Shown here in pieces: positions 3,324-58,176 of a DNA stretch of 58,980 nt (positions are counted from its first letter, which is position 1; each line of letters opens with the position of its first letter). The stretch covers positions 1-58,980 of the forward strand of contig JAURXY010000027.1 in the NCBI GenBank assembly GCA_030654225.1, given 5' to 3'. The notes below the pieces were generated by a model. The model had not been told where the DNA came from. It saw only the letters and a program-made list of their open reading frames with translations, and searched no databases. Origin of the DNA: a bacterium. GTDB taxonomy: Bacteria; Patescibacteriota; Minisyncoccia; Moranbacterales; UBA2206. The position numbers and the translations under genes were made by a program.

Positions 3324-3400
3324 CTACTCTGACCTTTCCGCTCCTCTCCACGCCAACTCAAAAATCGCCTTTTGGGAACGGGCGATTTTGAGGGCTTTAA
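3324..3400 (-). pseudogene. remnant of the 3' end of a fourth TrmB-family gene
   Basis: The minus frame reads ...KIARSQKAIFELAWRGAERSE*, against the C-terminus ITRSQKAIFELAWRGAGD of the 8186-8938 protein. 3338-3388 matches 8209-8259 at 48 of 51 nt. There is no upstream ORF or start codon. Confidence 0.65.
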
Positions 3401-5874: not shown

Positions 5875-6603
5875 CTATTTCGAAGTTTTCCACAAATATT
5901 CAAAAATATTTTTCATTGCTTCGGCGATTTTTTGGTTTTTAATAATAACGCCAGAGGGATTTTTTTTGTCGAAAGCGACAACTGCCAATTTGTCATCGTA
6001 AACATTAATTTCGATTTCAAGATCTTGAAAAAGTTTGATAAATTTCATCTCACGAAGCATTTCTTTGGCATTTTTCAAATGCTTTCTGCCTTCAATACTT
6101 TCCGGGATCAGATTTTTTACCCTCACTCCATGCGCCACTCTTTTAGGCAAATAATCATTCAAAAAGAAATCTTCCATATCATTTTGTGCGCTTTTGAAAT
6201 CCGTGATGGCATAAATCATTTTATTGGTATTTTCCCGCCAAGTATCAGCATAAAGATTTTTCACGCCTTCCATTCCTTCGAAATAGCTTACTTTTGATAG
6301 CAAGGATTTATTCTGATTTTGATTTTTTGCTGATCTAATAAGTTTTTGGTTTTCCAGTTTGAAATAATCATTTCTTTTTGCGATCCAAGTTTCCAAATCT
6401 TTCTCGCTTATCGCTTTGAAAACATCCTTATTGCCAACGCTAATTTTGGAAACCAAGCCTTTTTCCAAAAGTCTTTCCAAGACGGGATAAACAGTGGTCC
6501 TGTTTATCATATTTTCTTTCGCCAATTCACAAACCGAGACCTCTCCCAATTTATACAGACTAGCCAAAACATCCCTTTCTTTTTCGCTTAAAATATAATT
6601 CAT
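5875..6603 (-). CDS. TrmB-family HTH transcriptional regulator (module 2)
   Basis: LSEKERDVLASLYKLGEVSVCELAKENMINRTTVYPVLERLLEKGLV wHTH, with the same C-terminal architecture as its paralogs. Confidence 0.8.
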   Translation of the reverse strand: MNYILSEKERDVLASLYKLGEVSVCELAKENMINRTTVYPVLERLLEKGLVSKISVGNKDVFKAISEKDLETWIAKRNDYFKLENQKLIRSAKNQNQNKSLLSKVSYFEGMEGVKNLYADTWRENTNKMIYAITDFKSAQNDMEDFFLNDYLPKRVAHGVRVKNLIPESIEGRKHLKNAKEMLREMKFIKLFQDLEIEINVYDDKLAVVAFDKKNPSGVIIKNQKIAEAMKNIFEYLWKTSK

Positions 6604-6906: not shown

Positions 6907-6937
6907 GGTTTAATTAAATAATTGGGAGGGGATAAAA

Positions 6938-8185: not shown

Positions 8186-8938
8186 TTATTTATTTTCCAG
8201 TAGATCTCCCGCTCCTCTCCACGCCAACTCAAAAATCGCTTTTTGGGAGCGGGTGATTTCTTCGGATTCGATAATCATCCCAAACATTTCTGTGCCATAG
8301 CTAGCAATGGCGATTTTGTTTTTGTAGATATTAGTTTCATTAGAAACAGGAAAATCTTTTTCGCTAAGAATTTTCACTTCGCGGAGTTGCTCTGCATTAT
8401 TTTCCATATACTTTTCAATTCCAGAAAAATGCTTATAGATCCCTCGAATTCGGATGTTTTTTTCAACTCTTCGCGCGATATAATCATTTGTGTAATCTGG
8501 CAGATTCTCCAAAACGCCTTCGCCGACATAGGCCAAAATTTCATCACCCTTCTTGAGACTGCGCAAACTGTCTTCATACATTTCCTTAATTCCTTCCGCC
8601 CCTTCGAAATAGCGAATGAAAGGTTTTGTTTTGGGCGAGTTATATAAATTTTGCAAACTTGGCATTATGGAATTTATCCTTTCCTCTTTTTCTTTGAGTT
8701 TCTTGATTAGTATTTCCGGATCAGCCGGAGAAAAATATTTCACATTACCTTTGATGGATTTATAAATCAAACCTTCTTTCATTAGTTGATTAACAATATC
8801 ATAGACAGTTGGACGCTTCAGTCCGACTTTTTTTGCCAGAAGATAGGCCGTCGCTCCGCCCATTTCCAAGCAAGCCAAATAAACTTCCGCTTTTTTGTCC
8901 TCCATTCCAAATTGTCTCAAAATTTCTTTTATTTCCAT
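8186..8938 (-). CDS. TrmB-family HTH transcriptional regulator (module 3)
   Basis: FGMEDKKAEVYLACLEMGGATAYLLAKKVGLKRPTVYDIVNQLMKEGLI wHTH. Confidence 0.8.
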   Translation of the reverse strand: MEIKEILRQFGMEDKKAEVYLACLEMGGATAYLLAKKVGLKRPTVYDIVNQLMKEGLIYKSIKGNVKYFSPADPEILIKKLKEKEERINSIMPSLQNLYNSPKTKPFIRYFEGAEGIKEMYEDSLRSLKKGDEILAYVGEGVLENLPDYTNDYIARRVEKNIRIRGIYKHFSGIEKYMENNAEQLREVKILSEKDFPVSNETNIYKNKIAIASYGTEMFGMIIESEEITRSQKAIFELAWRGAGDLLENK

Positions 8939-11693: not shown

Positions 11694-11759
11694 ACTTGCT
11701 TTTATTACCCTTATATGCTACATTATATCTTGTAATAAATCAAATCAACCGATTCGGAT

Positions 11760-11800
11760 ATTCGTAGATTCGCATCTAATTCGCAGATTCGCATCGGTAC
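11760..11800 (+). repeat. ATTCGTAGATTCGCAT word motif upstream of rpmB
   Basis: ATTCGTAGATTCGCATCTAATTCGCAGATTCGCATCGGTAC, the same motif and spacing to the ATG as upstream of ssb and rpsR. Confidence 0.7.
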
Positions 11801-11806
11801 ATTTTT

Positions 11807-11974
11807 ATGTCTAGAGTATGTGATGTTTGCGGTCGAGGTTCTCAGGTTGGAAACAAGGTGAGCCATTCACAAGTGAAAACTTTGCGAAAATATATGATCA
11901 ACTTGCAAGCCAAAAAAATTGAAGGTAAGTCCCGAAAAGTCTGCACTAAATGCATAAAGACCATGGCTAAATAG
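11807..11974 (+). CDS. rpmB: 50S ribosomal protein L28
   Basis: MSRVCDVCGRGSQVGNKVSHSQVKTLRKYMINLQ is the L28 signature. Below the ORF-track cutoff, so I translated it by hand. Confidence 0.9.
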   Translation: MSRVCDVCGRGSQVGNKVSHSQVKTLRKYMINLQAKKIEGKSRKVCTKCIKTMAK

Positions 11975-14230: not shown

Positions 14231-14263
14231 AGACTTTTGTTTAATTATTAGTTTTTATTCCCC

Positions 14264-14369
14264 TACGAATTACGAATTTTTACGAATGTACTAATGTGAA
14301 ATGAATAATTTTTTACTGTCTTATCAAATTATTCGTATTTCGTACATTCGTACCGATTCGTAATTCGTA
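14264..14369. repeat. inverted TACGAAT/ATTCGTA word arrays
   Basis: TACGAATTACGAATTTTTACGAATGTAC ... GTACATTCGTACCGATTCGTAATTCGTA, lying between recA and the rodZ-like gene. Confidence 0.7.
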
Positions 14370-14414
14370 AAGACTACTGATATTGTATCACTCCGCCAAA
14401 ATCTTGGCAAGAGC

Positions 14415-15137
14415 CTAATTTTCAACTGTACTTTCTTGTGGCTCCTTATAATTAGATTGCACACTCAGGCTCTGTGTAGTCTCTTTTTTGAATTTATTGA
14501 TCGATTTAACATCAATCGTATTTAGTCCTGATTGCAAAGTTAGATTTTCCTTAAACCGACCGTCATCACCCACCAGAATTGGCTGATTGTTTATATATAA
14601 AAGCGCCTCCTTGTCTGTCACGCCCTCAATATAGACTGAATTTCCTTCCACCTGACTATTGTTTTCGGGACTCAAAATGATGAGGCTTGGCGCGTTGGCG
14701 AAAGAATTTATCTCCCCATACAACAAAACCAATCCGGCTAAAACTAAAACAATAATCGCTGAGATAAGAATTTTTCTCGGGGTAAAAATAAAAGGAGAGA
14801 TGTTAATTGGTTTTTCTTTTTTGTCATTTTCTTTTCCATTTTTTTTCAAATTAGCTCGGACTTCTTTTTCTCTTTCATAAATTCGAATAAGTATTTTTTC
14901 GTCCACTCCTAAAAAATCTGCGTAACTTCGCAGAAATCCCTTAACATAAACATCAGCTGGCAACTTATCCCAGACGCCTTCTTCTAGATATTCCAAATAG
15001 GCTGGCTGAATTTTGGTAAACCTCGAAGCTTCCGCAATCGAAGTTCGTTTGTCGCTTCGCAGTTTTTTTAGTTTTTCTCCCAGCGTCAATGTGCCAACGC
15101 TTTTTTTAGTAAAACCATTCATAGTTATATTTCCCAT
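14415..15137 (-). CDS. RodZ-like HTH membrane protein
   Basis: LGEKLKKLR....SIAEASRFTKIQPAYLEYLEEG.....PADVYVKGFLRSYADFLG followed by a TM helix. An alternative start at 15122 avoids the overlap with ftsK. Confidence 0.7.
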   Translation of the reverse strand: MGNITMNGFTKKSVGTLTLGEKLKKLRSDKRTSIAEASRFTKIQPAYLEYLEEGVWDKLPADVYVKGFLRSYADFLGVDEKILIRIYEREKEVRANLKKNGKENDKKEKPINISPFIFTPRKILISAIIVLVLAGLVLLYGEINSFANAPSLIILSPENNSQVEGNSVYIEGVTDKEALLYINNQPILVGDDGRFKENLTLQSGLNTIDVKSINKFKKETTQSLSVQSNYKEPQESTVEN

Positions 15138-17557
15138 TTATCCCGTTTATCCTGATCCGCAACGTTATTTTCATATTCAATACTACCCTCTTCGGCCACG
15201 CCATAAACTTCACGAGGCTTGGCGCCATCAGCTGGTCCAATCACTCCCTTTTCTTCCAATATATCCAGGATTCTCGCAGCGCGCGCATAACCAATTCTAA
15301 ATCTTCTTTGTAAAAATGAAGCACTGGCTTTTTTTGCGCGCTTTATCTCTTCTTCAATTTGTTTCAAAAGTTCATCATCTTCTCCACTGCCTTCCTCCAT
15401 TTTGAAATCGGTAATTTCCTTATTTAATTTTTCTGTGATATCTTGCTCGTCTTCTTTTTCCCCGCCTGCCTCGTTATGCGAAGCATTACGGGCAGGTTTT
15501 TTGTCCTCCTTCTTTTGTGAGATGATAAATTTCACCACTTTTTTCACTTCTGATTCGCTCACAAAAACTCCTTGGATTCTTTTTGGTTTTGGAGAGCTCG
15601 CACTCAGATAGAGCATGTCTCCATTGCCCAAAAGTTTTTCTGCCCCACCCATATCCAAGATAGTTCGTGAATCAATTTGAGTGGCCACCTGAAAGGCAAT
15701 TCTTGTTGTGATATTAGCTTTGATAAGCCCTGTGATAACTTCCACAGATGGACGCTGAGTTGAAACAATCAAATGAATGCCCACAGCGCGCGCCATCTGA
15801 GCAATGCGCACAATTGCCCCTTCCACTTCTTTGCCGTGACTACCCATAAGATCGGCTAGTTCATCAATCACAATGACAATATATGGCAAAGCTTTCAATT
15901 CTTCTTCGCTAGTTTCATTAGTTTCTGGATTAGTGTGTTTTATCTTATAGCCTGATTTGAGTTTTTCTCGATACGAACTGATGTCTCTAGAACCAGCATC
16001 TTGGAGCATTCGATATCTTCTTTCCATTTCTCCCACCGCCCATTTCAAAGCATTGACCACTTTGCTATTTTCCACCACCACCTCAGTTAGGAGATGCGGG
16101 ATACCATTATAAAGTGAAAGCTCTACTCGCTTTGGATCAACCATAATAAATTTCAAATCTTCCGGCGAATTTTGGTAGAGTAAAGTTGTGATCACGGAAT
16201 TTATCGAAACTGATTTTCCTGTGCCAGTGGCTCCCGCAATCATGAGATGGGGCATCTTGGCTAAATCGCCAAAAACACAATTTCCACTCACGTCCTCTCC
16301 CAGTGCCACCATCAAATTAGAAGTTCTCTTTTTGAATTGTGGTTCTTCGATCATATCACGAAGTCTCACGATCAGTGAAATTTTGTTAGGAATCTCAATG
16401 CCAATTAAGGATTGTCCAGGGATCGGCGCTTCAATTCGAATTGGATGAGCAGCCAGCGCCAGTGATAAATCGTTTTGCAAAGCCAAAATTTTGGCAATTT
16501 TCACTCCCACTGCCGGACGAAAACTATATTGCGTCACTGACGGACCAATTTTGACAGTGCCTCTCTCCACTTGAATGCCAAAATCATGCAGGGTTTTTTC
16601 AATAATGGCAAAATTAGCTTCCACATCTCCACCTTGCGCCTCGCCATAAGTTTTTTCCAACATCTCCGCTGGCGGAAAAACCCATTTGGAATTTTTTGAA
16701 ATTTTTGGAAAAGTAAATTCCTTGGTCGGCGCTTCCAAATCCAATGATCGTCTTTCCATTATTTTTTTGGAGTTTATTTGCCCCTCAATTTCATCTTCAA
16801 TTTTCGACGACACGAATTGATCGCGTCCTTCCACGAATTCAATTTTCCCGATATTTTTTTCGATTTCCGTTTCTTGTGAAATTTTTTCTGTGTCGTTCTG
16901 TTTTATCTCTGTGTTATTCTGTTTTTCTAACTCTGTGTCGTTCTGTATCATTTCTGCGTTATTCTGCGTTTTAATTTCTTCTGTGTCATTTTGTGTTTCT
17001 TCTTGTTTTTTAAATTTCAAAAAGAAATGCACAATGGAAAAATTGAAAGTCAAAATTATCCCTAACATAAAAATAGCCAACAGCACCACGAGACTTCCGG
17101 CTGAGCCTAAATATTTTGCCAAAAAATGACTCAAACCATAACCGATGTACCCTCCACCCTTGCCTTTGCCAGCCATTTTTAGCATTTCCTCGGCTAGATA
17201 AAACCAATGAAAGATTCCCGCAATACTAAGCAGAGAAACTAAAAGGCCGATAAACTTCGTCACATAAAAGGCCGTTTCTCGACGAAGTAACAAGACTATG
17301 CCTGCAAAAATCAAGGAGATTGGAAAAATAAATTTCACATAACCGATTGAATAGCCAATCATCTTATTGAGAAATTGCCCAAAAGATCCGGCCGCATTAA
17401 AAAAGCCCAAAATGGAAAGCACTGCCAACGCAAAAAGAACTACGGCCACCGCGCTTCTTTTGGCGTCCCCTTTGAGATTAATCCTCGGCTTTCTTTCCTG
17501 CTCTTTTTCCCCCGAATTATCCCCTTCCTTATTCTTATTTTTTTTATGTCTTCCCAT
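15125..17557 (-). CDS. ftsK: DNA translocase FtsK/SpoIIIE
   Basis: N-terminal TM helices, the motor domain with GATGTGKS Walker A, and a C-terminal gamma wHTH (ASFLQRRFRIGYARAARILD). Confidence 0.95.
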   Translation of the reverse strand: MGRHKKNKNKEGDNSGEKEQERKPRINLKGDAKRSAVAVVLFALAVLSILGFFNAAGSFGQFLNKMIGYSIGYVKFIFPISLIFAGIVLLLRRETAFYVTKFIGLLVSLLSIAGIFHWFYLAEEMLKMAGKGKGGGYIGYGLSHFLAKYLGSAGSLVVLLAIFMLGIILTFNFSIVHFFLKFKKQEETQNDTEEIKTQNNAEMIQNDTELEKQNNTEIKQNDTEKISQETEIEKNIGKIEFVEGRDQFVSSKIEDEIEGQINSKKIMERRSLDLEAPTKEFTFPKISKNSKWVFPPAEMLEKTYGEAQGGDVEANFAIIEKTLHDFGIQVERGTVKIGPSVTQYSFRPAVGVKIAKILALQNDLSLALAAHPIRIEAPIPGQSLIGIEIPNKISLIVRLRDMIEEPQFKKRTSNLMVALGEDVSGNCVFGDLAKMPHLMIAGATGTGKSVSINSVITTLLYQNSPEDLKFIMVDPKRVELSLYNGIPHLLTEVVVENSKVVNALKWAVGEMERRYRMLQDAGSRDISSYREKLKSGYKIKHTNPETNETSEEELKALPYIVIVIDELADLMGSHGKEVEGAIVRIAQMARAVGIHLIVSTQRPSVEVITGLIKANITTRIAFQVATQIDSRTILDMGGAEKLLGNGDMLYLSASSPKPKRIQGVFVSESEVKKVVKFIISQKKEDKKPARNASHNEAGGEKEDEQDITEKLNKEITDFKMEEGSGEDDELLKQIEEEIKRAKKASASFLQRRFRIGYARAARILDILEEKGVIGPADGAKPREVYGVAEEGSIEYENNVADQDKRDKWEI
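15462..15497. repeat. 36-nt GC-rich palindromic element inserted in frame in ftsK
   Basis: CCGCCTGCCTCGTTATGCGAAGCATTACGGGCAGGT encodes [13 protein letters not shown]. 32 of 36 nt are identical to 47612-47647. Confidence 0.8.
16886..17005. repeat. degenerate roughly 22-24-nt tandem array of the word TCTGTGTC(A/G)TTCTGT inside the ftsK linker
   Basis: Encodes TQNDTEEIKTQNNAEMIQNDTELEKQNNTEIKQNDTEKI. Confidence 0.75.
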
Positions 17558-19921: not shown

Positions 19922-19953
19922 ATTATACCCCCCCCCCCAGCAACAATCGTCAA
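19922..19953 (-). promoter_or_regulatory. promoter with a G11 homopolymer in the spacer
   Basis: TTGACG 19948-19953, a 20-nt spacer (ATTGTTGCT plus G11 at 19928-19938), then TATAAT 19922-19927, 31 nt upstream of the ATG at 19890. Confidence 0.55.
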
Positions 19954-20037
19954 ATCAAAAAAACGCCTCATATTTCCCGAAGCGTTTTTTGTATTGTATT
20001 CAAGGTAGAGACGAGGCAGTGCCTCGTCTCTACAATT

Positions 20038-20319: not shown

Positions 20320-20433
20320 ACGCTAATTTTTCTTGTGAATTTTCCGTAGTTTAATTGTAGCCTATTTTGACACTAAAAGTCAAAAATCAAAAAACGCCTC
20401 AGATTTTTTACAGCGTTTATATCAAATCAAATC

Positions 20434-20572: not shown

Positions 20573-20601
20573 GTCAATATTTAAAGATTTTATAAAGTTT
20601 C

Positions 20602-20634
20602 AAAAAACGCCTCGGATTTCCCAAGGCGTTTTTT
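20602..20634 (-). terminator. rpoC terminator (member of the AAAAAACGCC...GGCGTTTTTT family)
   Basis: Hairpin AACGCCT(TGG)...(CCG)AGGCGTT with T6. Similar units lie at 19955-19990 and 42816-42849. Confidence 0.75.
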
Positions 20635-20651
20635 GTATTCTACAAAATAAT

Positions 20652-38142: not shown

Positions 38143-38217
38143 TTGGAGCGGGTAGGGGGAGTCGAACCCCCGTCCTCAGCTTGGAAGGCTGATATAATAG
38201 CCGTTATACGACACCCG
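38143..38217 (-). tRNA. tRNA-Gly (anticodon UCC), CCA encoded
   Basis: Hand fold: acceptor GCGGGTG/TACCCGC, anticodon stem TCAGC/GCTGA with loop CTTCCAA, T arm GGGGG-TTCGACT-CCCCC. Confidence 0.85.
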
Positions 38218-38320
38218 CCTGCCTGATTTGCCTACTTTATTATTTATCCTCAACTGATTGAGTTTGATAGATTTTATTCTTAGTTGGGGCTATTTAATAA
38301 AATAAGCAAATCTGGCAGGC
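38217..38320. repeat. long imperfect hairpin repeat A (abuts the tRNA-Gly 5' end)
   Basis: CCTGCCTGATTTGCC...TCAACTG / ...CTTAGTTGGGG...GCAAATCTGGCAGG, about 38 paired positions. Confidence 0.75.
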
Positions 38321-38340
38321 ACGCCCTGTTGTCTCATTGC

Positions 38341-38474
38341 AAGTTTGGCAGGCACGCCCATCATTTTCTACTATCTTACTATATATCCTCAACTGTTTGG
38401 GTTAGCTAATCCTAATTCTTAGTTGGGAAAAAATATAACAAAATAAGAAAGTTTGGCAGGCACGCCCATCATTT
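38341..38474. repeat. hairpin repeat B flanked by a 26-nt perfect direct repeat
   Basis: AGTTTGGCAGGCACGCCCATCATTTT at 38341-38366 and 38449-38474. The inner segment belongs to the same subfamily as copy D. Confidence 0.75.
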
Positions 38475-38729
38475 TTTATTTCTATGATAATTTTTCAAAA
38501 CTTTTTCTAAATATCCTCGACCCCAGCCACTTTTCAAATATCTTTCTCTTAAAATAGCATCCTCTTTATCTAAAAAAATTTCACAATATACCAATTTCCA
38601 CGGTCTGTGCTTTTTAGTCGATTCATTCATCCCCGCATTATGTTCTTTCAACCTATTGTTTATATTGGAAGTAAAACCCTTATATAAATCACTATTCTTT
38701 TGACTTTCTATCACATAGACATAAAACAT
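38469..38729 (-). CDS. GIY-YIG nuclease family protein (small, single-domain)
   Basis: FYVYVIES....LYKGFTSNI..RL.EHN motif. Confidence 0.8.
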   Translation of the reverse strand: MFYVYVIESQKNSDLYKGFTSNINNRLKEHNAGMNESTKKHRPWKLVYCEIFLDKEDAILRERYLKSGWGRGYLEKVLKNYHRNKK

Positions 38730-38749
38730 TTTTTTGTTTTTGTAATTCT

Positions 38750-38823
38750 TGGTCGGAGTGCTGGGAATCGAACCCAGTCAATATGGTCCCAAACCATACG
38801 TACTACCGGTATACGACACTCCG
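38750..38823 (-). tRNA. tRNA-Pro (anticodon UGG), CCA encoded
   Basis: Hand fold: acceptor CGGAGTG/CACTCCG, anticodon stem TATGG/CCATA with loop TTTGGGA, T arm CTGGG-TTCGATT-CCCAG. Confidence 0.85.
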
Positions 38824-38925
38824 CCTGCCTGATTTGCCCGCTTTATTATTTTTTCTCAACTATTTAGGTCAGATAAACTTATTTCTTAGTTGGGGCTATC
38901 TAACAAAATAAGCAAATCTGGCAGG
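38824..38925. repeat. hairpin repeat C (abuts the tRNA-Pro 5' end)
   Basis: Same arms as copy A (CCTGCCTGATTTGCC ... GCAAATCTGGCAGG). Confidence 0.75.
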
Positions 38926-42795: not shown

Positions 42796-42992
42796 AAAAA
42801 TAATCTATCTTAATCAAAAAAACGCTTCCGATTTTCGAAAGCGTTTTTTGTATTTTTATTGTCGCAATTCATAAATTTTTATGATTTATAACATTACGCA
42901 ATAACCACACGAATTTTCTACCCAACTACAAAATCCTTGCTCTTTTTTTATACTATGGTATAATAATCTTGTAATAATTAATCTTAAAATTT

Positions 42993-46441: not shown

Positions 46442-48463
46442 TTAGATTAGCAATCCGACTATTAGCAGTGCTACGATATTAAGAATTTTAATCATAGGGT
46501 TAATCGCTGGTCCAGCTGTGTCTTTGTATGGGTCCCCAACAGTGTCACCTGTCACCGCAGCTTGATGAGCAAAACTGCCTTTGCCTCCAAAGTGTCCAGT
46601 TTCAATATATTTTTTCGCGTTATCCCAAGCTCCGCCTCCACTTGTCATAGAAATTGCCACAAAGATTCCTGTTATAATTGATCCAACCAAAAGTCCCCCG
46701 AGCGCTTCCACTCCCAAAACAAAACCAATTAGAATTGGAGTAACTACCGGGATAAGAGCTGGTACTATCATTTCTCGAATTGCAGCTTTAGTCACAATAT
46801 CCACCGTGCTACCATAATCAGGTTTTTCTGTTCCATCCATAATGCCTGGTTTTTCCTTGAATTGTTTTCGAACATCCTCTACCACTGCTCCAGCAGCTTT
46901 CCCAACCGCTTGCATACAAAGTGCTCCAAAATAATATGGCAAGAGTCCACCAATAAAAAGACCCGCCAAGACTTTTGGATCATTGATCATAAATTGAACA
47001 GTGTTTGGAATGCTATGAGTAAAGTCAGCAAATAAAACTAACGCAGCCAAAGCAGCTGATCCGATAGCATATCCTTTTGTCACTGCTTTTGTAGTGTTGC
47101 CAACGGCGTCCAAGGGATCGGTAATATTTCTAACATCCTCTCCCATTTCAGCCATTTCCGCAATACCTCCAGCGTTGTCGGTAATTGGACCATATGAATC
47201 AATCGCCACAATTATCCCTGCCATCGAAAGCATCGCCATTGCTGCAATCGAAACACCATAAATTTCAGCTAGTGAGTAGGCTGAGAGTATCGCAAGCACA
47301 ATCACAATCACTGGCAGTGCTGTTGATTTCATTGAAACAGCTAGTCCGGCAATCACATTTGTTCCATGTCCTGTTTTTGAAGCCTCAGCAATATCTTTTA
47401 CCGGTTTATATTTTGTTGAAGTATAATATTCAGTAATAACTACCATTAGAGCCGTCACAATAAGTCCAATAAGCGAAGATAGATAAAGACTAAGTGTGGA
47501 ATATTTTCCGTTGTCTGCCATGAAAAAATTTGTGGCAGGATAAAAAGCAATTGCAGCTAGAACTCCAGAAACAATCAATCCCTTATACAACGCTTCCATA
47601 ATATTTTGACTCCCGCCTGCATCGCTATGTGAAGCATTGCGGGCAGGTTTCCCAAGCTTCACAAAAAAAGTTCCAATGATTGAAGTGATAATAGAAATAG
47701 AACCTAATATCAAAGGAAAAATAATCGCGTTAGAAAAATTTGCGAAGAGAAGAGATCCTAATATCATAGTTGCAATGGAAGTCACGGCATAAGTTTCAAA
47801 AAGATCCGCCGCCATTCCAGCGCAGTCACCAACGTTGTCGCCAACATTGTCCGCAATCACCGCTGGATTTCTTGGGTCGTCCTCTGGAATTCCTGCTTCA
47901 ACTTTTCCCACAAGGTCAGCTCCCACATCTGCTGCCTTGGTGAAAATTCCGCCACCTAGTCGGGCAAAAATTGAAATTAATGATCCACCAAAACCAAAAC
48001 CGATGAGAGCATGGATGTCTCTAGTTATAAAATAAAATCCAGAAGTTCCGAGCAGTGCCAAACCAACCACTAGCATTCCCGTAATACTTCCCCCTTGGAA
48101 AGCCACCGTCAAAGCTTTTTGCATTCCACCTCGAGCTGCCTCGGCAGTTCTCACATTCGCTCGTACCGAAACATTCATTCCAATGTACCCTGTTAGCGCT
48201 GAAAGAATTGCACCAATAATAAAAGCAATAGCTGTTAACCAACCTAGACTTGGAATTAGCCCGATAACAACGAATAACACAACTGCCACCACTGCCACTG
48301 TTTTATATTGACGATTGAGATATGCTTTCGCTCCTTCTTGAATAGCTTTGGCAATTTCTTGCATTTTTTCATTGCCACTTGGCAAACGCAAAACCTTTTC
48401 AATTAATATCACTCCATAAATGATAGCGGCTACTGCTCCTCCCAAAATGAATAGTGTCGTCAT
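46442..48463 (-). CDS. hppA: membrane-bound H+/Na+-translocating pyrophosphatase
   Basis: [29 protein letters not shown] and [11 protein letters not shown] motifs, with about 16 TM helices. Confidence 0.95.
47612..47647. repeat. 36-nt GC-rich palindromic element inserted in frame in hppA
   Basis: CCCGCCTGCATCGCTATGTGAAGCATTGCGGGCAGG encodes [13 protein letters not shown] within a loop. Confidence 0.8.
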
Positions 48464-48493: not shown

Positions 48494-49780
48494 TTATTCG
48501 CTTACTTCTTGTGTTTCTTCTTTTTCTTCTATCATTTCCTCTTTTATTTCCACTTTTTCAGTTTCATTTTTTTCATCTTCGATTTCCTCACCTTCTGGTT
48601 TCAACCCCTTAATATCAATTTTCCAACCGGTAAGTTTGGCAGCCAAGCGCACATTTTGCCCACGCTTACCAATAGCTAGTGACAATTGATCTTCTGCGAC
48701 AAAAACCACCGCTTCATTTTTTTCTTCATCAATGTCCACTTTCAAAACCTTAGCAGGAGAAAGAGAAGCTGAGATAAATTTTGCCACGTCTTCATTCCAA
48801 AGCACAATGTCAATTTTTTCTCCGCCCAACTCATCAATCACCGCTTGCACTCTTGTGCCTTTTTGTCCGACACAAGAACCAATTGGATCAATGCCGTCTT
48901 CTGAAGAAGTTACTGCAATTTTGGTTCGCTCTCCCGCTTCTCTAGCGATGGATTTTATCTCCACTGTACCGGCAAAAATTTCCGGCACTTCCAACTCAAA
49001 CATTTTTTTCACCATATCTGGATTGGTTCGACTCAAAGTTATCCCAGGACCTTTTGTTCCAACATCAACTTTTTGCAAATATACTTTCACTCTTTGCCCT
49101 AAACGATAATTTTCTCTTTCAATTTGTTCATTCGGAAAAAGCACTCCAATTGATTTTCCAAGATCAACAAATACATTTCTTCCTTCCACTCTTTGCACCA
49201 CACCACTAATAATTTCTCCTTCCTTGTTTTTATATTCTTCAAACATTGAATCTCTTTCCGCTTCACGAATTCTTTGAATGATCACTTGTTTGGCTGTTTG
49301 CGCCGCCACTCGTCCATAATCACTTTTTTGTTCTAATTCTGTTTCGATAATATCACCAATCACTGCATCCTTTTTTATCTTTTTTGCTTCTGCTAAAGTC
49401 AAATCTCTTTCCATATTATATCTTGGCAATCTTTCTTCCTCGCTTTCTGTGTCATTCTGTCTTTTTTCTGTGTTTTTCTGTATTTTTAATTCTGTGTCAT
49501 TCTGTTCTTCAATAAATTCGCGCGTTGTTTCGTCTACTACTTCTTTGACAAGAAAGAATTTTGCTCCACCTGTGAGCTCATCAAATTCAGAGCGAATATT
49601 TTGTCCCCGTTTGCCATAATCTTTTTTGTAAGCTGCCGCCAGTGCCGCTTCAATTGTTTCCACTACTTTTTCTTTGGAAATTCCTTTTTCCTCGCAAAGT
49701 GCTGAGATAGCACTGCTAAAATCACCAGTTCTTCCTGCTGATTCATTTTCCTCGTCTTTTTTCGCCTTTTTCTTTGCCAT
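48494..49780 (-). CDS. nusA: transcription termination/antitermination factor NusA
   Basis: N-terminal domain, S1 (GEIISGVVQRVEGRNVFVDLG) and two KH domains. Start set at MAKKKAKK (49780) instead of the track start 49906. Confidence 0.93.
   Translation of the reverse strand: MAKKKAKKDEENESAGRTGDFSSAISALCEEKGISKEKVVETIEAALAAAYKKDYGKRGQNIRSEFDELTGGAKFFLVKEVVDETTREFIEEQNDTELKIQKNTEKRQNDTESEEERLPRYNMERDLTLAEAKKIKKDAVIGDIIETELEQKSDYGRVAAQTAKQVIIQRIREAERDSMFEEYKNKEGEIISGVVQRVEGRNVFVDLGKSIGVLFPNEQIERENYRLGQRVKVYLQKVDVGTKGPGITLSRTNPDMVKKMFELEVPEIFAGTVEIKSIAREAGERTKIAVTSSEDGIDPIGSCVGQKGTRVQAVIDELGGEKIDIVLWNEDVAKFISASLSPAKVLKVDIDEEKNEAVVFVAEDQLSLAIGKRGQNVRLAAKLTGWKIDIKGLKPEGEEIEDEKNETEKVEIKEEMIEEKEETQEVSE
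49445..49506. repeat. TCTGTGTCATTCTGT word array inside nusA
   Basis: Encodes EEQNDTELKIQKNTEKRQNDTESEE in a loop of the NusA N-terminal domain. Confidence 0.75.
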
Positions 49781-49790
49781 AATATAATTT

Positions 49791-49870
49791 ACAGAAAGCA
49801 ACACAGAAATTTGCAGAATGACACAAAAAAATTCTGTGCCGTTCTGTATTTCTTCTGCGTTTTTCCGTGT
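49791..49870. repeat. the same word family in both orientations, upstream of nusA
   Basis: ACAGAAAGCAACACAGAA..GCAGAATGACACA / TTCTGTGCCGTTCTGTATTTCTTCTGCG. Confidence 0.7.
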
Positions 49871-49959
49871 TATTTTTAAAAAAAGTCCGCTTTCCGCGAA
49901 CTTCATCCAGACACTATCTTACTTTTAGATACTATCAAAATAACAGCAATAAGTCAATA

Positions 49960-56695: not shown

Positions 56696-56769
56696 AAAGT
56701 TTTTTATTTTAAAATTTAAACAATTTTTATATTATTCGCACATTCGTATTAATTCGTAATTCGTAAGGA

Positions 56770-58176
56770 TTACAAATTACTCACCCTCTGCACCGCTGTC
56801 TTGATCGCATCGGAAACCGTCGCTTGACCTTTGTTGACACTGTCAATCATTTCGGCAAAAATCGATTCCACTGCTGTTGCATCTTTTTGTCGCCAACTTT
56901 TTGCCACCAAATTTCCCAGTGCGAAAACTCCAATCTTGGCATCAGTTTTTTGCAGTTCGATGAGATCGCGCCGTGCCGCCGGTTGACCGGTTTTCAGAAG
57001 AAAACTCACGGCTGGATCAAAGTTTGGATTGGTTGTTTTTCCGACTCCCGAAGTTGAAACACTGCTTCCAAAAGATCCATCTGGCTTAGCTCCAAAATAT
57101 GTCAAAAATTGCCAAGCTTCTTTTATCCTTGTGTCGTTGCTCACTGTCGGAGTATTCGGAGCAGTTTTAGAAATAGCATTTTTTCCAACCACAAACCCCC
57201 AATAATTTGCCACATTCATCGCCGGTTTATTTTCAAATTGTGGCACGCTCGCGATTCCAAAATTCAATTTTGGTGCCTTAGCTGAAACCGTGTCAATGTT
57301 CCACGAATAATTCAACATCATCGCCGTTGTGCCTTCAGAAAAAGCATCAATGGAATAATGCATATTTGTATTCCAAGTATAATTAAACGATCGCGAATCG
57401 GAAAATCTTGTATAAAAATTCAAAGCTTCTTCTCCAGGATAAACAGCGCCTCCACTCAAGCTAGCACCAGAGATAGAATCATCAAAAGAAGCCAATCCTC
57501 TTTCATCAGTCATTTTTGTTCCGTTTTGCATCATAATTAGACTCAAGATATCCGTCGCACGATTAATGTTATTTGCCGTTCCAAGAGCAGCTCCTGATTG
57601 AATTATGTTTCCCGAAGCATCCACTTGAGTAAGTTTCATCGCAGTATCGATAAATTCATTCCAAGTTTTTGGAGGAGTAGTGATGCCAGCCTGATTGAAA
57701 AGATCTTTGTTATAATAGAGTGCTAAACTATCCACCGACATTGGCACGCCATAAATTTTTCCTTCATTCACAAAATCACTCACAACCACATCCACAAAAT
57801 TATTCCTAAATTTTTGTTCTGTTATCATTTTCAAATCTGTTGGGGTGGGGGCTAGAGCAACTTTGTCAGAAAATGCCGGTACCCATGAATTATTGATCAT
57901 AAAAATATCCGGCCCTTGCCCTGTTGCCAATGCATCAAGCAATTCCTTGCGATATGAATCTACTGGAATTTTTTTATAGTTTATTTGAGCGATATTGATA
58001 TTCAACTTAGTATAATTGTCAAAAATTTCACGCATTGCCAAATCTTGGTCTAGTGGTCCCCAAACTTCTAGACTCAAATCATACAAATGAGAATTTTTCT
58101 CTTTGCAACCACAACCGGAAACAATCAAAATTGTTCCTAGGATAAAAGTTGCGATAAATATTTTTTTTATTTTCAT
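56770..58176 (-). CDS. ABC transporter extracellular solute-binding lipoprotein (family 1, sugar-type)
   Basis: LIVSGCGC lipobox. Length and pattern (GQGPDIFMINNSWVPAF, YYNKDLF) are typical of SBP_bac_1. Confidence 0.8.
   Translation of the reverse strand: MKIKKIFIATFILGTILIVSGCGCKEKNSHLYDLSLEVWGPLDQDLAMREIFDNYTKLNINIAQINYKKIPVDSYRKELLDALATGQGPDIFMINNSWVPAFSDKVALAPTPTDLKMITEQKFRNNFVDVVVSDFVNEGKIYGVPMSVDSLALYYNKDLFNQAGITTPPKTWNEFIDTAMKLTQVDASGNIIQSGAALGTANNINRATDILSLIMMQNGTKMTDERGLASFDDSISGASLSGGAVYPGEEALNFYTRFSDSRSFNYTWNTNMHYSIDAFSEGTTAMMLNYSWNIDTVSAKAPKLNFGIASVPQFENKPAMNVANYWGFVVGKNAISKTAPNTPTVSNDTRIKEAWQFLTYFGAKPDGSFGSSVSTSGVGKTTNPNFDPAVSFLLKTGQPAARRDLIELQKTDAKIGVFALGNLVAKSWRQKDATAVESIFAEMIDSVNKGQATVSDAIKTAVQRVSNL

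Follow-up and report, generated by a model that had tools for sequence, protein, structure and literature searches.

Two GC-rich palindromes in the ftsK and hppA genes of a Moranbacteria-like patescibacterium arose by the recent, clean insertion of a mobile DNA hairpin 36 bases long. Both lie in the 58,980-nt stretch of DNA analysed here (hereafter the window). We explain them best as copies of a non-autonomous mobile hairpin resembling REPs and Rickettsia palindromic elements (RPEs), which is probably filtered by selection on the peptide it encodes.

Two copies of one element in the window

A GC-rich palindromic element had been reported from the sequence by a first-pass annotation, in frame in both genes, and this observation is confirmed. 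The copies and their host genes are as follows.

15461..15496, minus strand: element copy 1, in the FtsK linker, with 3 mismatches to the 36-nt family consensus
15125..17557, minus strand: host gene ftsK, 810 aa; the insert forms residues 688-699, in the linker between the motor and gamma domains
47612..47647, minus strand: element copy 2, in hppA, differing from the consensus at 1 of 36 positions
46442..48463, minus strand: host gene hppA (membrane-bound pyrophosphatase), 673 aa; the insert forms residues 273-284

Each copy is 12 codons long. The sense strand of copy 1 is CCTGCCCGTAATGCTTCGCATAACGAGGCAGGCGGG, which encodes PARNASHNEAGG, and that of copy 2 is CCTGCCCGCAATGCTTCACATAGCGATGCAGGCGGG. 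These limits (15461-15496 and 47612-47647) were set by the family consensus and correct those first proposed, 15462-15497 and 47612-47647, which were out of step by one base: compared literally, that pair is identical at 9/36 positions, whereas in register the copies agree at 32/36, the identity originally claimed. With this correction the observation holds. The 36-mer first quoted (plus strand, 15462-15497) occurs once in the window (0 expected, 100 shuffles), and a degenerate pattern finds exactly two copies there (0 expected). The GC content of the element is 61%, against 36.5% for the window. Among sequencing runs, the best candidates shared at most 17% of the words sampled from the window, and these words probably stem from relatives or belong to the element.

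Most of the remaining description also stands. Both copies have the same orientation and reading frame relative to their host gene, the 13-residue peptides given for them are as stated, the ftsK copy sits in the motor-gamma linker, and the flanks of the two copies are unrelated (26/80 bases identical, the chance level). Five of the six reading frames had been described as open; this holds for the ftsK copy and for the consensus but not for the hppA copy, in which only four are open because a TGA arises in one antisense frame.

Filled and empty sites in orthologues

The nearest HppA orthologues (95% identical) have 661 aa instead of 673 and lack the insert, as do 119 of the 120 best HppA homologues, so that among these 120 only the window's protein has it. 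The protein context reads FFVKLGK/insert/SQNIM in the window and FFVKLDK/SQNIM in the closest homologues, and when the DNA is aligned with three contigs from the closest relative, a clean gap of exactly 36 bp is left. The insert lies in an interhelical loop of the membrane pyrophosphatase. AlphaFold2 gives pLDDT <50 to a single segment, residues 273-285 (the insert), within a coil spanning residues 266-287. Two HppA homologues (P0022 and P0028) carry different insertions in the same loop.

In ftsK, an orthologue at 93% identity (P0122, locus L008) has the same insert. At this site it is missing from homologues of ≤90% identity, including an orthologue at 90%, as well as from P0123 (L278) and the more distant FtsK orthologues examined. 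An exact look-up of the window's FtsK found it in no other contig. The filled junction reads AAAAAA/element/GAAAA, without duplication, and the empty site AAAAAA/GAAAAG. Other FtsK orthologues have independent, more decayed copies elsewhere in the protein. Both insertions comprise exactly 12 codons with no target-site duplication. Distant orthologues carrying the same peptide at the same position, which had been suggested as a check, were not seen for HppA (119/120 without) or for FtsK (without at ≤90% identity).

The closest relative (L121) has no hppA copy, yet it carries a copy of the TAC subfamily in the tail of nusA. Closely related genomes differ in the sites at which the element is present, which indicates that it is active now.

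A family with sharply defined ends

The family consensus is CCTGCCCGCAATGCTTCGCATAGCGATGCAGGCGGG. Its ends are sharply defined, its termini are fixed (CCTGCCCGC...GCAGGCGGG) and its length is fixed at 12 codons. Among the matches listed, 121 of 124 unique sites have C at position 1 and 120 have G at position 36; of about 140 loosely matched copies, 121 measure exactly 36 nt; and 54 of 128 copies are identical to the consensus; the search patterns fixed 20 of the 36 positions, and part of this apparent conservation stems from them. The flanks are unconserved. It is the nucleotides that are conserved, at synonymous positions as well. Across 38 aligned host proteins the peptide never varies at P, A, R, N, A, S, H or the closing GG. 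Sister subfamilies (for example PARNATHSVAGG, PARIATQSVAGG and PARNASQREAGG) keep the hairpin and differ in peptide, and GTAG is found only as a minor internal variant, ATGTAGGCGGG.

Two hairpin registers of copy 1 were predicted.

15465..15496, minus strand: register A; sense positions 1-5/28-32 and 7-14/18-25 paired, loop 15-17
15461..15492, minus strand: register C; sense positions 5-9/32-36, 12-14/28-30 and 16-19/23-26 paired

Register A leaves a 3' tail, CGGG (15461-15464), unpaired and folds as DNA at -11.1 kcal/mol (z -3.6) in copy 1. Register C leaves a 5' tail, CCTG (15493-15496), unpaired; the consensus, folded as DNA, has its energy minimum in this register (-12.5 kcal/mol, z -3.65). 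DNA folds overall range from -11 to -12.6 kcal/mol, with z from -2.3 to -4.0. The registers overlap and therefore cannot form together. Covariation in the family affects pairs 11-21 (AU 30, GC 9, UA 6) and 9-23 in register A, and pair 16-26 (AU 27, UA 26, GU 3, GC 2) in register C, with a score matched by 0/500 shuffles in either register, which supports two overlapping registers as the predicted structure. The hairpin drawn at first pass is real, but it is only one of the two registers that covariation backs.

The element recurs in two very distant groups

We found the element in at least 96 assemblies and at least 119 stretches of representative genomes, and a metagenome sample yielded at least 120 stretches with it. 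A lack of further copies had been named at first pass as grounds for doubt; many further copies exist elsewhere. The hosts comprise many classes of Patescibacteria together with high-GC Verrucomicrobia, Kiritimatiellae and Lentisphaerae, with a locus GC of 0.52-0.62 in the Verrucomicrobia group and about 0.3-0.5 in Patescibacteria. As judged from these loci, the element is not specific to the window's lineage and appears nearly unchanged in Patescibacteria and the Verrucomicrobia group. It is present in the assemblies of many independent projects and in one single-cell genome. The 59-kb contig has 2 copies, and as many as 6 were counted in the blocks sampled from one MAG.

Some apparent additions to the host range were rejected. 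Loci labeled 'Gammaproteobacteria', 'Vicingus' and 'Bdellovibrionales' are not accepted as extra phyla; their GC is low, like that of Patescibacteria, and the insertion in the 'Vicingus' locus (L073) is orthologous to that of a Gottesmanbacteria locus (L083). A Leifsonia locus (L063) proved to be a chance match to the core pattern, with the element's ends missing.

Cultured phages and plasmids gave no match to the element. Viral metagenome contigs gave one strict copy and 33 stretches with the same termini, the latter mostly belonging to a sister variant that sits in the intergenic palindromes of related phage contigs, with no transposase between the copies. That two very distant groups share a nearly identical 36-mer is unlike ordinary REPs and counts against our reading; it would call for horizontal spread or very strong constraint.

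Genic copies are probably filtered by reading frame and site

About half of the copies lie inside genes (75 in ORFs and 52 intergenic of 128, among the matches listed). The sense frame 0 accounts for 60 of the 75 in-ORF copies among the matches listed, against an expected 1 in 6; the other two sense frames together hold 2, and the frame with a stop codon is avoided. An independent metagenome sample gave 37 of 51 in-ORF copies in sense frame 0 among its matches listed. Host proteins include S1, PheT, TGT, RpoA, RpoB, GyrA, SecA (twice), AlaRS, MetRS, RF, RecR, RuvB, GAPDH and others. The copies occupy unrelated positions in unrelated, often essential proteins, where the surroundings are exposed and charged and the flanks of the insert are rich in Lys, Glu and Asp.

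Copies of the element itself, other hairpins and a tRNA D-loop have also served as its insertion sites. In L102, copies are nested at the exact centre of others; a further one is nested in L080; and one copy lies within the D-loop fragment of a tRNA-Arg, the fragments with the element being truncated copies beside an intact tRNA. Separately, many intergenic copies were seen to cap longer inverted repeats or to lie between the ends of genes.

The reading that competes best with a mobile hairpin, and one that we consider unlikely, is that the hairpin is kept mainly for a use in DNA or RNA (a terminator, an mRNA-stabilising 3' hairpin, or a protein-binding or recombination site) and that mobility is secondary. 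Such a use would account for the extreme conservation (54/128 identical copies among the matches listed), for pairing maintained by covariation, for the intergenic copies at inverted-repeat apices or between gene ends, for their orientation (both are found, 17 co-directional versus 7 antisense among the matches listed) and for the retention of insertions in orthologous genes of several species (L031/L035/L112 and L050/L107). It would not account for the roughly half of the copies that lie in ORFs at unrelated positions of unrelated proteins, and copies nested in copies are senseless for a functional site. The closest relatives manage without the hppA copy, neither a T-run nor any other conserved flank follows the element, and no Rfam family matches it: with Rfam 15, the window gave only two tRNAs at the gathering threshold, and the surroundings of the element only chance-level matches (E-values >=2.7).

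We consider it very improbable that selection acts on the encoded peptide itself, whose usefulness (as a linker or tag, say, or a site of cleavage or modification) would drive its spread from protein to protein. The strong one-frame bias, the residues invariant in 38 host proteins and the invariably exposed, charged surroundings are what such a peptide would produce. Conservation that extends to synonymous positions is not, and neither are the 52/128 intergenic copies in both orientations (among the matches listed) or the sister subfamilies that change the peptide and keep the hairpin. The closest orthologues do without the insert, for which the AlphaFold2 model shows no structure.

Still less probable is an intron-like unit that is removed from RNA and whose genic position is harmless. 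It would predict an orientation bias and no frame bias, against 60 copies in frame 0 versus 2 in the other sense frames (among the matches listed) and avoidance of the stop-containing frame. The compact, stable hairpin with precise ends and the copy in the tRNA-Arg D-loop would suit it, but the tRNA fragments concerned are truncated and stand beside an intact tRNA. Finally, an ancestral protein motif or a sequencing or assembly artefact, for which nothing speaks beyond the first impression of a shared peptide, has a negligible probability and counts as already refuted by the ortholog comparisons, given orthologues without the insert, unrelated flanks, recurrence in independent projects and a single-cell genome, orthologous copies with substitutions and compensatory changes, and clean filled and empty sites that fit only real DNA.

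Insertion target and search for a mobilising enzyme

No fixed 4-5-nt target was found upstream of the insertion point, where the only feature is a weak preference for A (or G) at position -1 (A in 56/124 sites among the matches listed). No target-site duplication was found at two filled-versus-empty sites or in nested copies. A general preference for hairpin-loop targets was rejected as not significant over all sites: reconstructed empty sites fell in hairpin loops in 40% of cases versus 43% of controls. In single intergenic cases, a hairpin-loop target is nonetheless clear (L010, L017, L071, L103, the tRNA D-loop and the centre of other copies).

No Y1 or RAYT gene adjoins the element in about 2 Mb of sequence surrounding some 250 sampled copies. 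Y1/RAYT-type systems with their own flanking hairpins do occur in these lineages, and the three Y1-like genes in the loci examined (L090, L110 and L114) are flanked by other hairpins. No transposase family is enriched among 78 ORFs beside intergenic copies, and none is among the window's 25 most frequent Pfam families. We also considered the element as the two ends of a larger insertion sequence and rejected this; unpaired half-elements and inverted pairs around a gene were sought, and only nested and decayed copies were found.

Relation to known systems

The element had first been likened to RPEs, and its behaviour fits the comparison: like them, it is a palindromic repeat found between genes and in frame in housekeeping genes, with one preferred frame and in surface loops of the proteins. 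RPEs, too, are not known to have a transposase. Compared by description, RPEs are about 100-150 bp long and restricted to Rickettsia, whereas the element is 36 bp long and found in Patescibacteria and the Verrucomicrobia group. RPEs have been called 'selfish DNA in protein-coding genes' (summarised in PMC3733652).

In size and shape, the element is closer to REPs than to the 100-150 bp RPEs. It shares with REPs an imperfect palindrome of 20-40 bp, a 4-nt unpaired tag at one end, use as an insertion target and absence of target duplication. It is also dispersed in many copies over the assemblies sampled, REPs being dispersed in many copies per genome. REPs are known inside ORFs, and the verrucomicrobium Opitutus terrae has the most (PMC3733652). 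The tail of the element, however, is CCTG (5') or, in the other register, CGGG (3'), not GTAG or CGTC; about half of its copies are in genes, whereas REPs lie mostly between genes; and it is common to distant groups, whereas REPs are species- or genus-specific. Unlike REP-RAYT systems, it flanks no RAYT gene in the ~2 Mb around ~250 copies. Its termini are absent from the supplementary lists of the REP catalogue (PMC3733652).

IS200/IS605 elements resemble it in their hairpin ends and in precise excision and insertion without target duplication, and a single-stranded circle is physically plausible as an intermediate of a 36-nt unit. Their two subterminal hairpins are separate and their insertion point lies 3' of a fixed 4-5-nt target, whereas the two hairpins of the element overlap within 36 nt and there is no fixed target. 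MITEs are longer (70-300 bp), with terminal inverted repeats and a target-site duplication; the element is 36 bp long and showed no such duplication. Two further kinds of translated repeat DNA are comparable: PARCELs (PMC2996958), which are palindromic and horizontally distributed among distant microbes but form tandem intragenic repeats that build surface proteins, unlike a solitary 12-codon unit; and the Coxiella MITEs that affect proteins (PMC5896051), which are longer and have terminal inverted repeats.

TIGR arrays specify 36-nt tigRNAs with conserved edges and occur in phages and Candidate Phyla Radiation bacteria (PMC12045711). They are tandem arrays beside a Tas gene, with variable 9-nt spacers and UG/CCA boxes (PMC12045711), whereas the element is solitary, conserved in its interior and without UG/CCA boxes. 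A TIGR or CRISPR unit was rejected on this anatomy; copies are solitary or nested, and no arrays were seen. In the full texts searched, neither the DNA nor the peptide strings of the element occur and no published description was found; keyword searching of the literature returned only general work on REPs, RPEs, MITEs and PARCELs.

A proposed cycle and its implications

We propose that the non-autonomous hairpin is mobilised in single-stranded, folded form by an enzyme whose gene lies elsewhere and which most plausibly belongs to the HUH/Y1 (IS200/RAYT-like) class. This enzyme would cut precisely at both hairpin feet and paste the element in, and the overlapping registers, each with its 4-nt tail, may act as left and right ends. 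Insertion would be roughly random in place and orientation, and since these genomes are about 90% coding, most insertions are expected to land in genes. There, copies would survive only in the sense frame that gives a small, hydrophilic, disordered peptide, and only where a loop or linker can accommodate 12 additional residues. Given selection for frame and for a tolerant site, we therefore infer that the ftsK and hppA insert is a tolerated passenger and not a functional motif.

Palindromic selfish DNA tolerated in genes is already known; what is unusual here is its small size, precision and reach, with one 36-mer, often base-identical, in frame in RpoB, GyrA, SecA, tRNA synthetases, FtsK and numerous further proteins from two very distant groups. 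A further-reaching idea, which we offer tentatively and think doubtful as it stands, is that it represents an undescribed kind of micro-transposon adapted to life within the genes of very gene-dense genomes. It would be held at 12 codons, with a harmless disordered peptide encoded in its preferred sense frame and overlapping hairpins as its ends, and would depend on an enzyme not yet recognised as a transposase; this system would have passed between Patescibacteria and the Verrucomicrobia group. If so, nature would in effect have run a linker-insertion scan on essential proteins over much of the bacterial tree.

The element offers a sharply defined substrate for finding the enzyme that moves REP-like hairpins, and its copies flag loops of essential proteins that tolerate 12 extra residues. 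It also gives rise to false "lineage-specific motifs" and to alignment artefacts in proteins of the Candidate Phyla Radiation, and the presence or absence of its copies is usable as a fine-scale strain marker in metagenomes.

In-frame insertions in ftsK and hppA

We conclude with high confidence that the 36-base GC-rich hairpin found in ftsK and hppA is mobile DNA whose copies are filtered through selection on the encoded peptide. The first-pass annotation had likened it to the Rickettsia palindromic elements; its behaviour matches theirs, and we regard the finding as real and that interpretation as supported. The 36-mer quoted for ftsK (15462-15497) has a single site in the window at up to 3 mismatches, and a degenerate 36-mer pattern has exactly two, in ftsK and hppA, with none expected by chance in either search. 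Both copies, initially placed at 15462-15497 and 47612-47647, exist, but relative to each other these coordinates are shifted by one base.

Element copies in the window, placed by the family consensus
15461-15496, minus strand, copy in ftsK
47612-47647, minus strand, copy in hppA

Once put in register, the copies are identical at 32 of 36 positions, as first reported. They share orientation and frame (both sense, starting on a codon boundary of minus-strand genes, with a Lys codon before each), the ftsK copy encoding PARNASHNEAGG and the hppA copy its own 12-residue peptide. Comparison bore out that their flanks are unrelated, and the GC content of the element is 61% vs 36.5% for the window. 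Five of six frames, the number originally given, are open in the ftsK copy and the consensus; in the hppA copy it is four.

The peptide was expected to be missing from orthologs. The window HppA has 673 aa, against 661 in its top-ranked homologs (identities of 95, 90 and 88%) and in lower-ranked ones; these read FFVKLDK-SQNIM where the window protein carries the peptide, which is present in 1 of the 120 best homologs. In alignment with the window, three contigs coding for the 95%-identical HppA show one clean gap of 36 bp. They read CTTGATAAG/AGTCAAAAT at the unoccupied site, with neither duplication nor loss, and the junction is ambiguous by one base because the element ends in G. In an AlphaFold2 model (mean pLDDT 80.6), the insert (residues 273-285) is the sole segment below pLDDT 50 and lies in a coil (266-287) between helices 245-265 and 288-315. 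In the published membrane pyrophosphatase topology, the probable counterpart is the loop that joins helices 7 and 8 on the cytoplasmic side. Homologs P0022 and P0028 carry unrelated insertions of 11-17 residues in the same loop.

The ftsK insert is common to the window and a 93%-identical ortholog (P0122, locus L008), and the peptide is absent at this site from the orthologs examined at 90% identity or less. The junction reads AAAAAA/element/GAAAA in the window vs AAAAAA/GAAAAG in locus L278. Alignment to 2IUT and 2VE8 confirmed a site between the motor and gamma domains. Two more distant FtsK proteins have independent, more decayed copies elsewhere, at residues 193 (RADNASRSDAGG) and 673 (PARNATHSVAGG).

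Coding sequence is also invaded by a second repeat family, made up of TCTGTGTCGTTCTGT-type units; translated in the sense direction, these give (E/K)xQNDTE repeats. The number of units varies among FtsK orthologs 86-93% identical, and in viral contigs CTCTGTG units like these border the 36-nt element.

TCTGTGTCGTTCTGT-type repeats in the window
16860-17011, in ftsK
49440-49485, in nusA
49832-49872, immediately before the probable true start of nusA

The nusA ORF (48494-49906, 470 aa) probably starts at an internal MAKKK; NusA of the closest relative has 434 aa, and the 42 codons upstream of that start overlap a repeat copy.

A slipped palindrome with sharp ends

A core scan with 20 fixed bases and one genome per species returned at least 119 stretches; a Leifsonia stretch was rejected as a chance match, and at least 118 loci, from at least 96 assemblies, are real. 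The consensus of the 128 copies listed is CCTGCCCGCAATGCTTCGCATAGCGATGCAGGCGGG, to which 54 of these 128 are identical. Both ends are sharp: of the 124 unique sites listed, 121 have C at position 1 and 120 have G at position 36, and the flanks (-12 to -1 and +1 to +12) barely depart from background except for a weak A at -1. Length is exactly 36 nt in 121 of about 140 loosely matched copies.

The palindrome is slipped. Folded as DNA, the consensus has a 32-nt hairpin preceded by the 4-nt tail CCTG (-12.5 kcal/mol, z -3.65), and the ftsK copy has one followed by the 4-nt tail CGGG (-11.1 kcal/mol, z -3.6); RNA folds go down to -18 to -19 kcal/mol. Covariation was assessed for two overlapping, mutually exclusive registers in 64 distinct metagenome sequences, in which the search had left the interior free. 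Register A pairs 1-5 with 28-32 and 7-14 with 18-25, pair 11-21 being AU in 30, GC in 9 and UA in 6 sequences. Register C pairs 5-9 with 32-36, 12-14 with 28-30 and 16-19 with 23-26; its pair 16-26 is AU in 27, UA in 26, GU in 3 and GC in 2 and unpaired in only 6, a signal that is partly subfamily linkage, yet four pair types are present. For each register, 0 of 500 shuffles reached the observed score, and slid controls were all far lower. Register C on one strand mirrors register A on the other, and therefore each end presents a hairpin plus 4-nt tail. These two structures may represent left-end and right-end recognition compressed into one 36-mer.

Distribution and sister variants

Most of the listed loci belong to Patescibacteria of many classes (Microgenomates, Parcubacteria, Saccharibacteria and Peribacteria lineages), and at least 24 come from Verrucomicrobia, Kiritimatiellae and Lentisphaerae, including contigs of 0.5, 1.9 and 4.2 Mb. 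GC content separates the groups (0.52-0.62 in Verrucomicrobia-group loci vs about 0.3-0.5 in Patescibacteria loci). The labels Gammaproteobacteria, Vicingus and Bdellovibrionales are distrusted: these loci are low in GC, and the insertion in locus L073 (labelled Vicingus) is orthologous to that in L083. The element has spread, little changed, through both Patescibacteria and the Verrucomicrobia group. No match came from collections of cultured phages and plasmids.

A metagenome scan fixing only the ends and TGC at 12-14 returned at least 120 stretches and revealed a superfamily of sister variants.

Subfamilies in the metagenome sample (copies, peptide)
TAC, 22 copies, PARNATHSVAGG
TTC, the window's own, 14 copies, the 12-residue peptide
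ATT/AAA, 11 copies, PARIATQSVAGG
AGT/CAC, 4 copies, PARSATHSVAGG
AAC GCG AG, 5 copies, PARNASQREAGG

The AAC GCG AG variant also dominates a set of related viral contigs, and loci L090 and L109 bear elements sharing the 9-nt ends but with an unrelated hairpin interior.

Probable selection on the encoded peptide

Placement was scored against stop-to-stop ORFs of at least 450 nt, with shadow ORFs removed; frame 0 is the sense frame used by both window copies.

Placement of the copies listed (high-GC genomes, prone to spurious ORFs, supply several of the antisense cases; intergenic metagenome copies include some near contig edges)
128 genome copies: frame 0, 60; other sense frames, 2; antisense in ORF, 13; intergenic, 52
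123 metagenome copies: frame 0, 37; other sense frames, 5; antisense in ORF, 9; intergenic, 72

The frame bias is best explained by selection on the product rather than by the insertion mechanism, because intergenic copies occur in both orientations and genic ones almost all in one frame. A rough check, with random insertion and about 90% coding, supports this reading: the expected ratio of frame-0 genic to intergenic copies is about 1.5 to 1, and 60 to 52 was observed. Among the listed intergenic genome copies, 17 lie between two genes running in the direction of the element, 7 between two antisense to it, 6 between convergent and 3 between divergent genes. In consensus translation, products of the other open frames (e.g. 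RLHRYAKHCGQ) are hydrophobic or contain Cys; residues flanking the peptide are mainly Lys, Glu, Asp, Pro and Gly.

Hosts were identified for 30 frame-0 copies. They include translation proteins (ribosomal protein S1, PheT, AlaRS, MetRS, a release factor, class I Ile/Val/Leu-type and Trp/Tyr-type synthetases), RNA polymerase subunits RpoA (between its N- and C-terminal domains) and RpoB, SecA (two genomes, different sites), TGT, GyrA, RecR, RuvB, NusB, YchF, GAPDH, a cysteine desulfurase-like enzyme, aminopeptidase N and others.

Insertion sites and turnover

No target duplication was found at the two filled-vs-empty pairs (hppA, ftsK) or around nested copies, where taking out the inner element leaves an outer one of exactly 36 nt. 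Locus L102 has three nested insertions, in either orientation, exactly between outer positions 18 and 19, and L080 has one between positions 15 and 16. Several intergenic copies cap strong host hairpins, for example in loci L010 (-24 kcal/mol, flanks rejoined), L017, L071 and L103. In L091 (3130-3389), two tandem 89-nt units directly upstream of an intact tRNA-Arg(CCG) each comprise a promoter-like stretch and the first 16 nt of tRNA-Arg, with the element in the D-loop. Since hairpin loops are not enriched over all insertion sites, these cases suggest, rather than establish, a loop preference.

Intergenic regions of the window contain composite palindromes, inverted arrays of 8-mers such as TTCGTAGA and TTCGCAT around a short spacer (1154-1242, 1734-1821, 11746-11809, 14261-14377 and 56707-56773). 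In other genomes, similar arrays built of genome-specific 7-9-mers have the element at their apex (L026, L078, L044, L110, L126).

Both window copies are recent insertions. The ftsK copy (3 differences from consensus, occupied in two species-level lineages) is older than the hppA copy (1 difference, private to the window's genome). L121, a contig of the closest relative (about 90% nucleotide identity) syntenic with the window, lacks the hppA copy and carries a TAC-subfamily copy, CCTGCCCGCGATGCTACGCATAGCGTTGCAGGCGGG (PARDATHSVAGG), in the NusA C-terminal tail (6267-6302; also L122, 401-436) that is absent from the window. Occupancy is therefore turning over between near relatives. The same site is filled in orthologs from different species-level MAGs in three genes, coding for an amidase-domain protein (L031/L035/L112), a Trp/Tyr-type tRNA synthetase (L050/L107) and AlaRS (L073/L083); here the element appears less diverged than its flanks, a comparison biased by the search pattern. 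It is a very small, precisely bounded hairpin, compatible with coding and currently active.

Known systems and candidates for a mobilising enzyme

REPs resemble the element in size and in their "tag plus hairpin" shape, and are also known from within ORFs, most often in the verrucomicrobium Opitutus terrae (PMC3733652). However, they carry a GTAG/CGTC tag, are mostly extragenic and species-specific, and have a flanking RAYT gene; the element lacks the tag, follows neither pattern, and had no such gene in the loci searched. MITEs differ in terminal repeats, target duplication and size, and a TIGR or CRISPR unit was rejected. Rfam gave no match, and neither the DNA string nor the peptide was found in searchable literature. 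The kind of element is already known; this very small, precisely bounded variant is new.

All ORFs of the window and about 155 loci were searched with E. coli RayT (K-12 record; phmmer) and for an HUH...Y motif.

Y1-like genes
L090, 1341-1877, RayT match, E = 1.3e-7
L110, 694-1218, Pfam Y1_Tnp, 25 bits (cut-off 23)
L114, 5746-6525, Pfam Y1_Tnp, 37 bits (cut-off 23)

Each is bordered by its own hairpins, different from the element: the L090 gene lies between 115-nt direct repeats bearing classical CTAC-tagged REPs, and the L114 gene is interrupted in frame by its own hairpin, TATCAAACACCCGGTGTTTGATA. REP/RAYT-type systems therefore live in these lineages. Within these locus stretches no Y1-like gene was tied to the element, and 752 kb of metagenome loci held no Y1 match; a single gene per genome may lie farther away. 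No family was enriched among the 78 ORFs adjoining intergenic copies, where housekeeping genes alone were seen; no transposase was among the 25 most frequent families of the window's 51 other ORFs; and the phage contigs that carry three copies have structural genes in the intervals. That the mover is a Y1/HUH enzyme is held with low confidence.

The window holds further repeats: a terminator-like hairpin, AAAAAACGCCTC...GAAGCGTTTTTT, in four copies (19953-19995, 20384-20426, 20597-20639, 42812-42854); two tRNA genes (38147-38218, 38753-38823) in a tandem duplication of about 606 nt (38147-38925; flanks 77-85% identical); a 51-nt direct repeat of 94% identity (3338-3388, 8209-8259); and a perfect 23-nt inverted repeat, CCTCCCAATTATTTAATTAAACC (117-139, 6907-6929).
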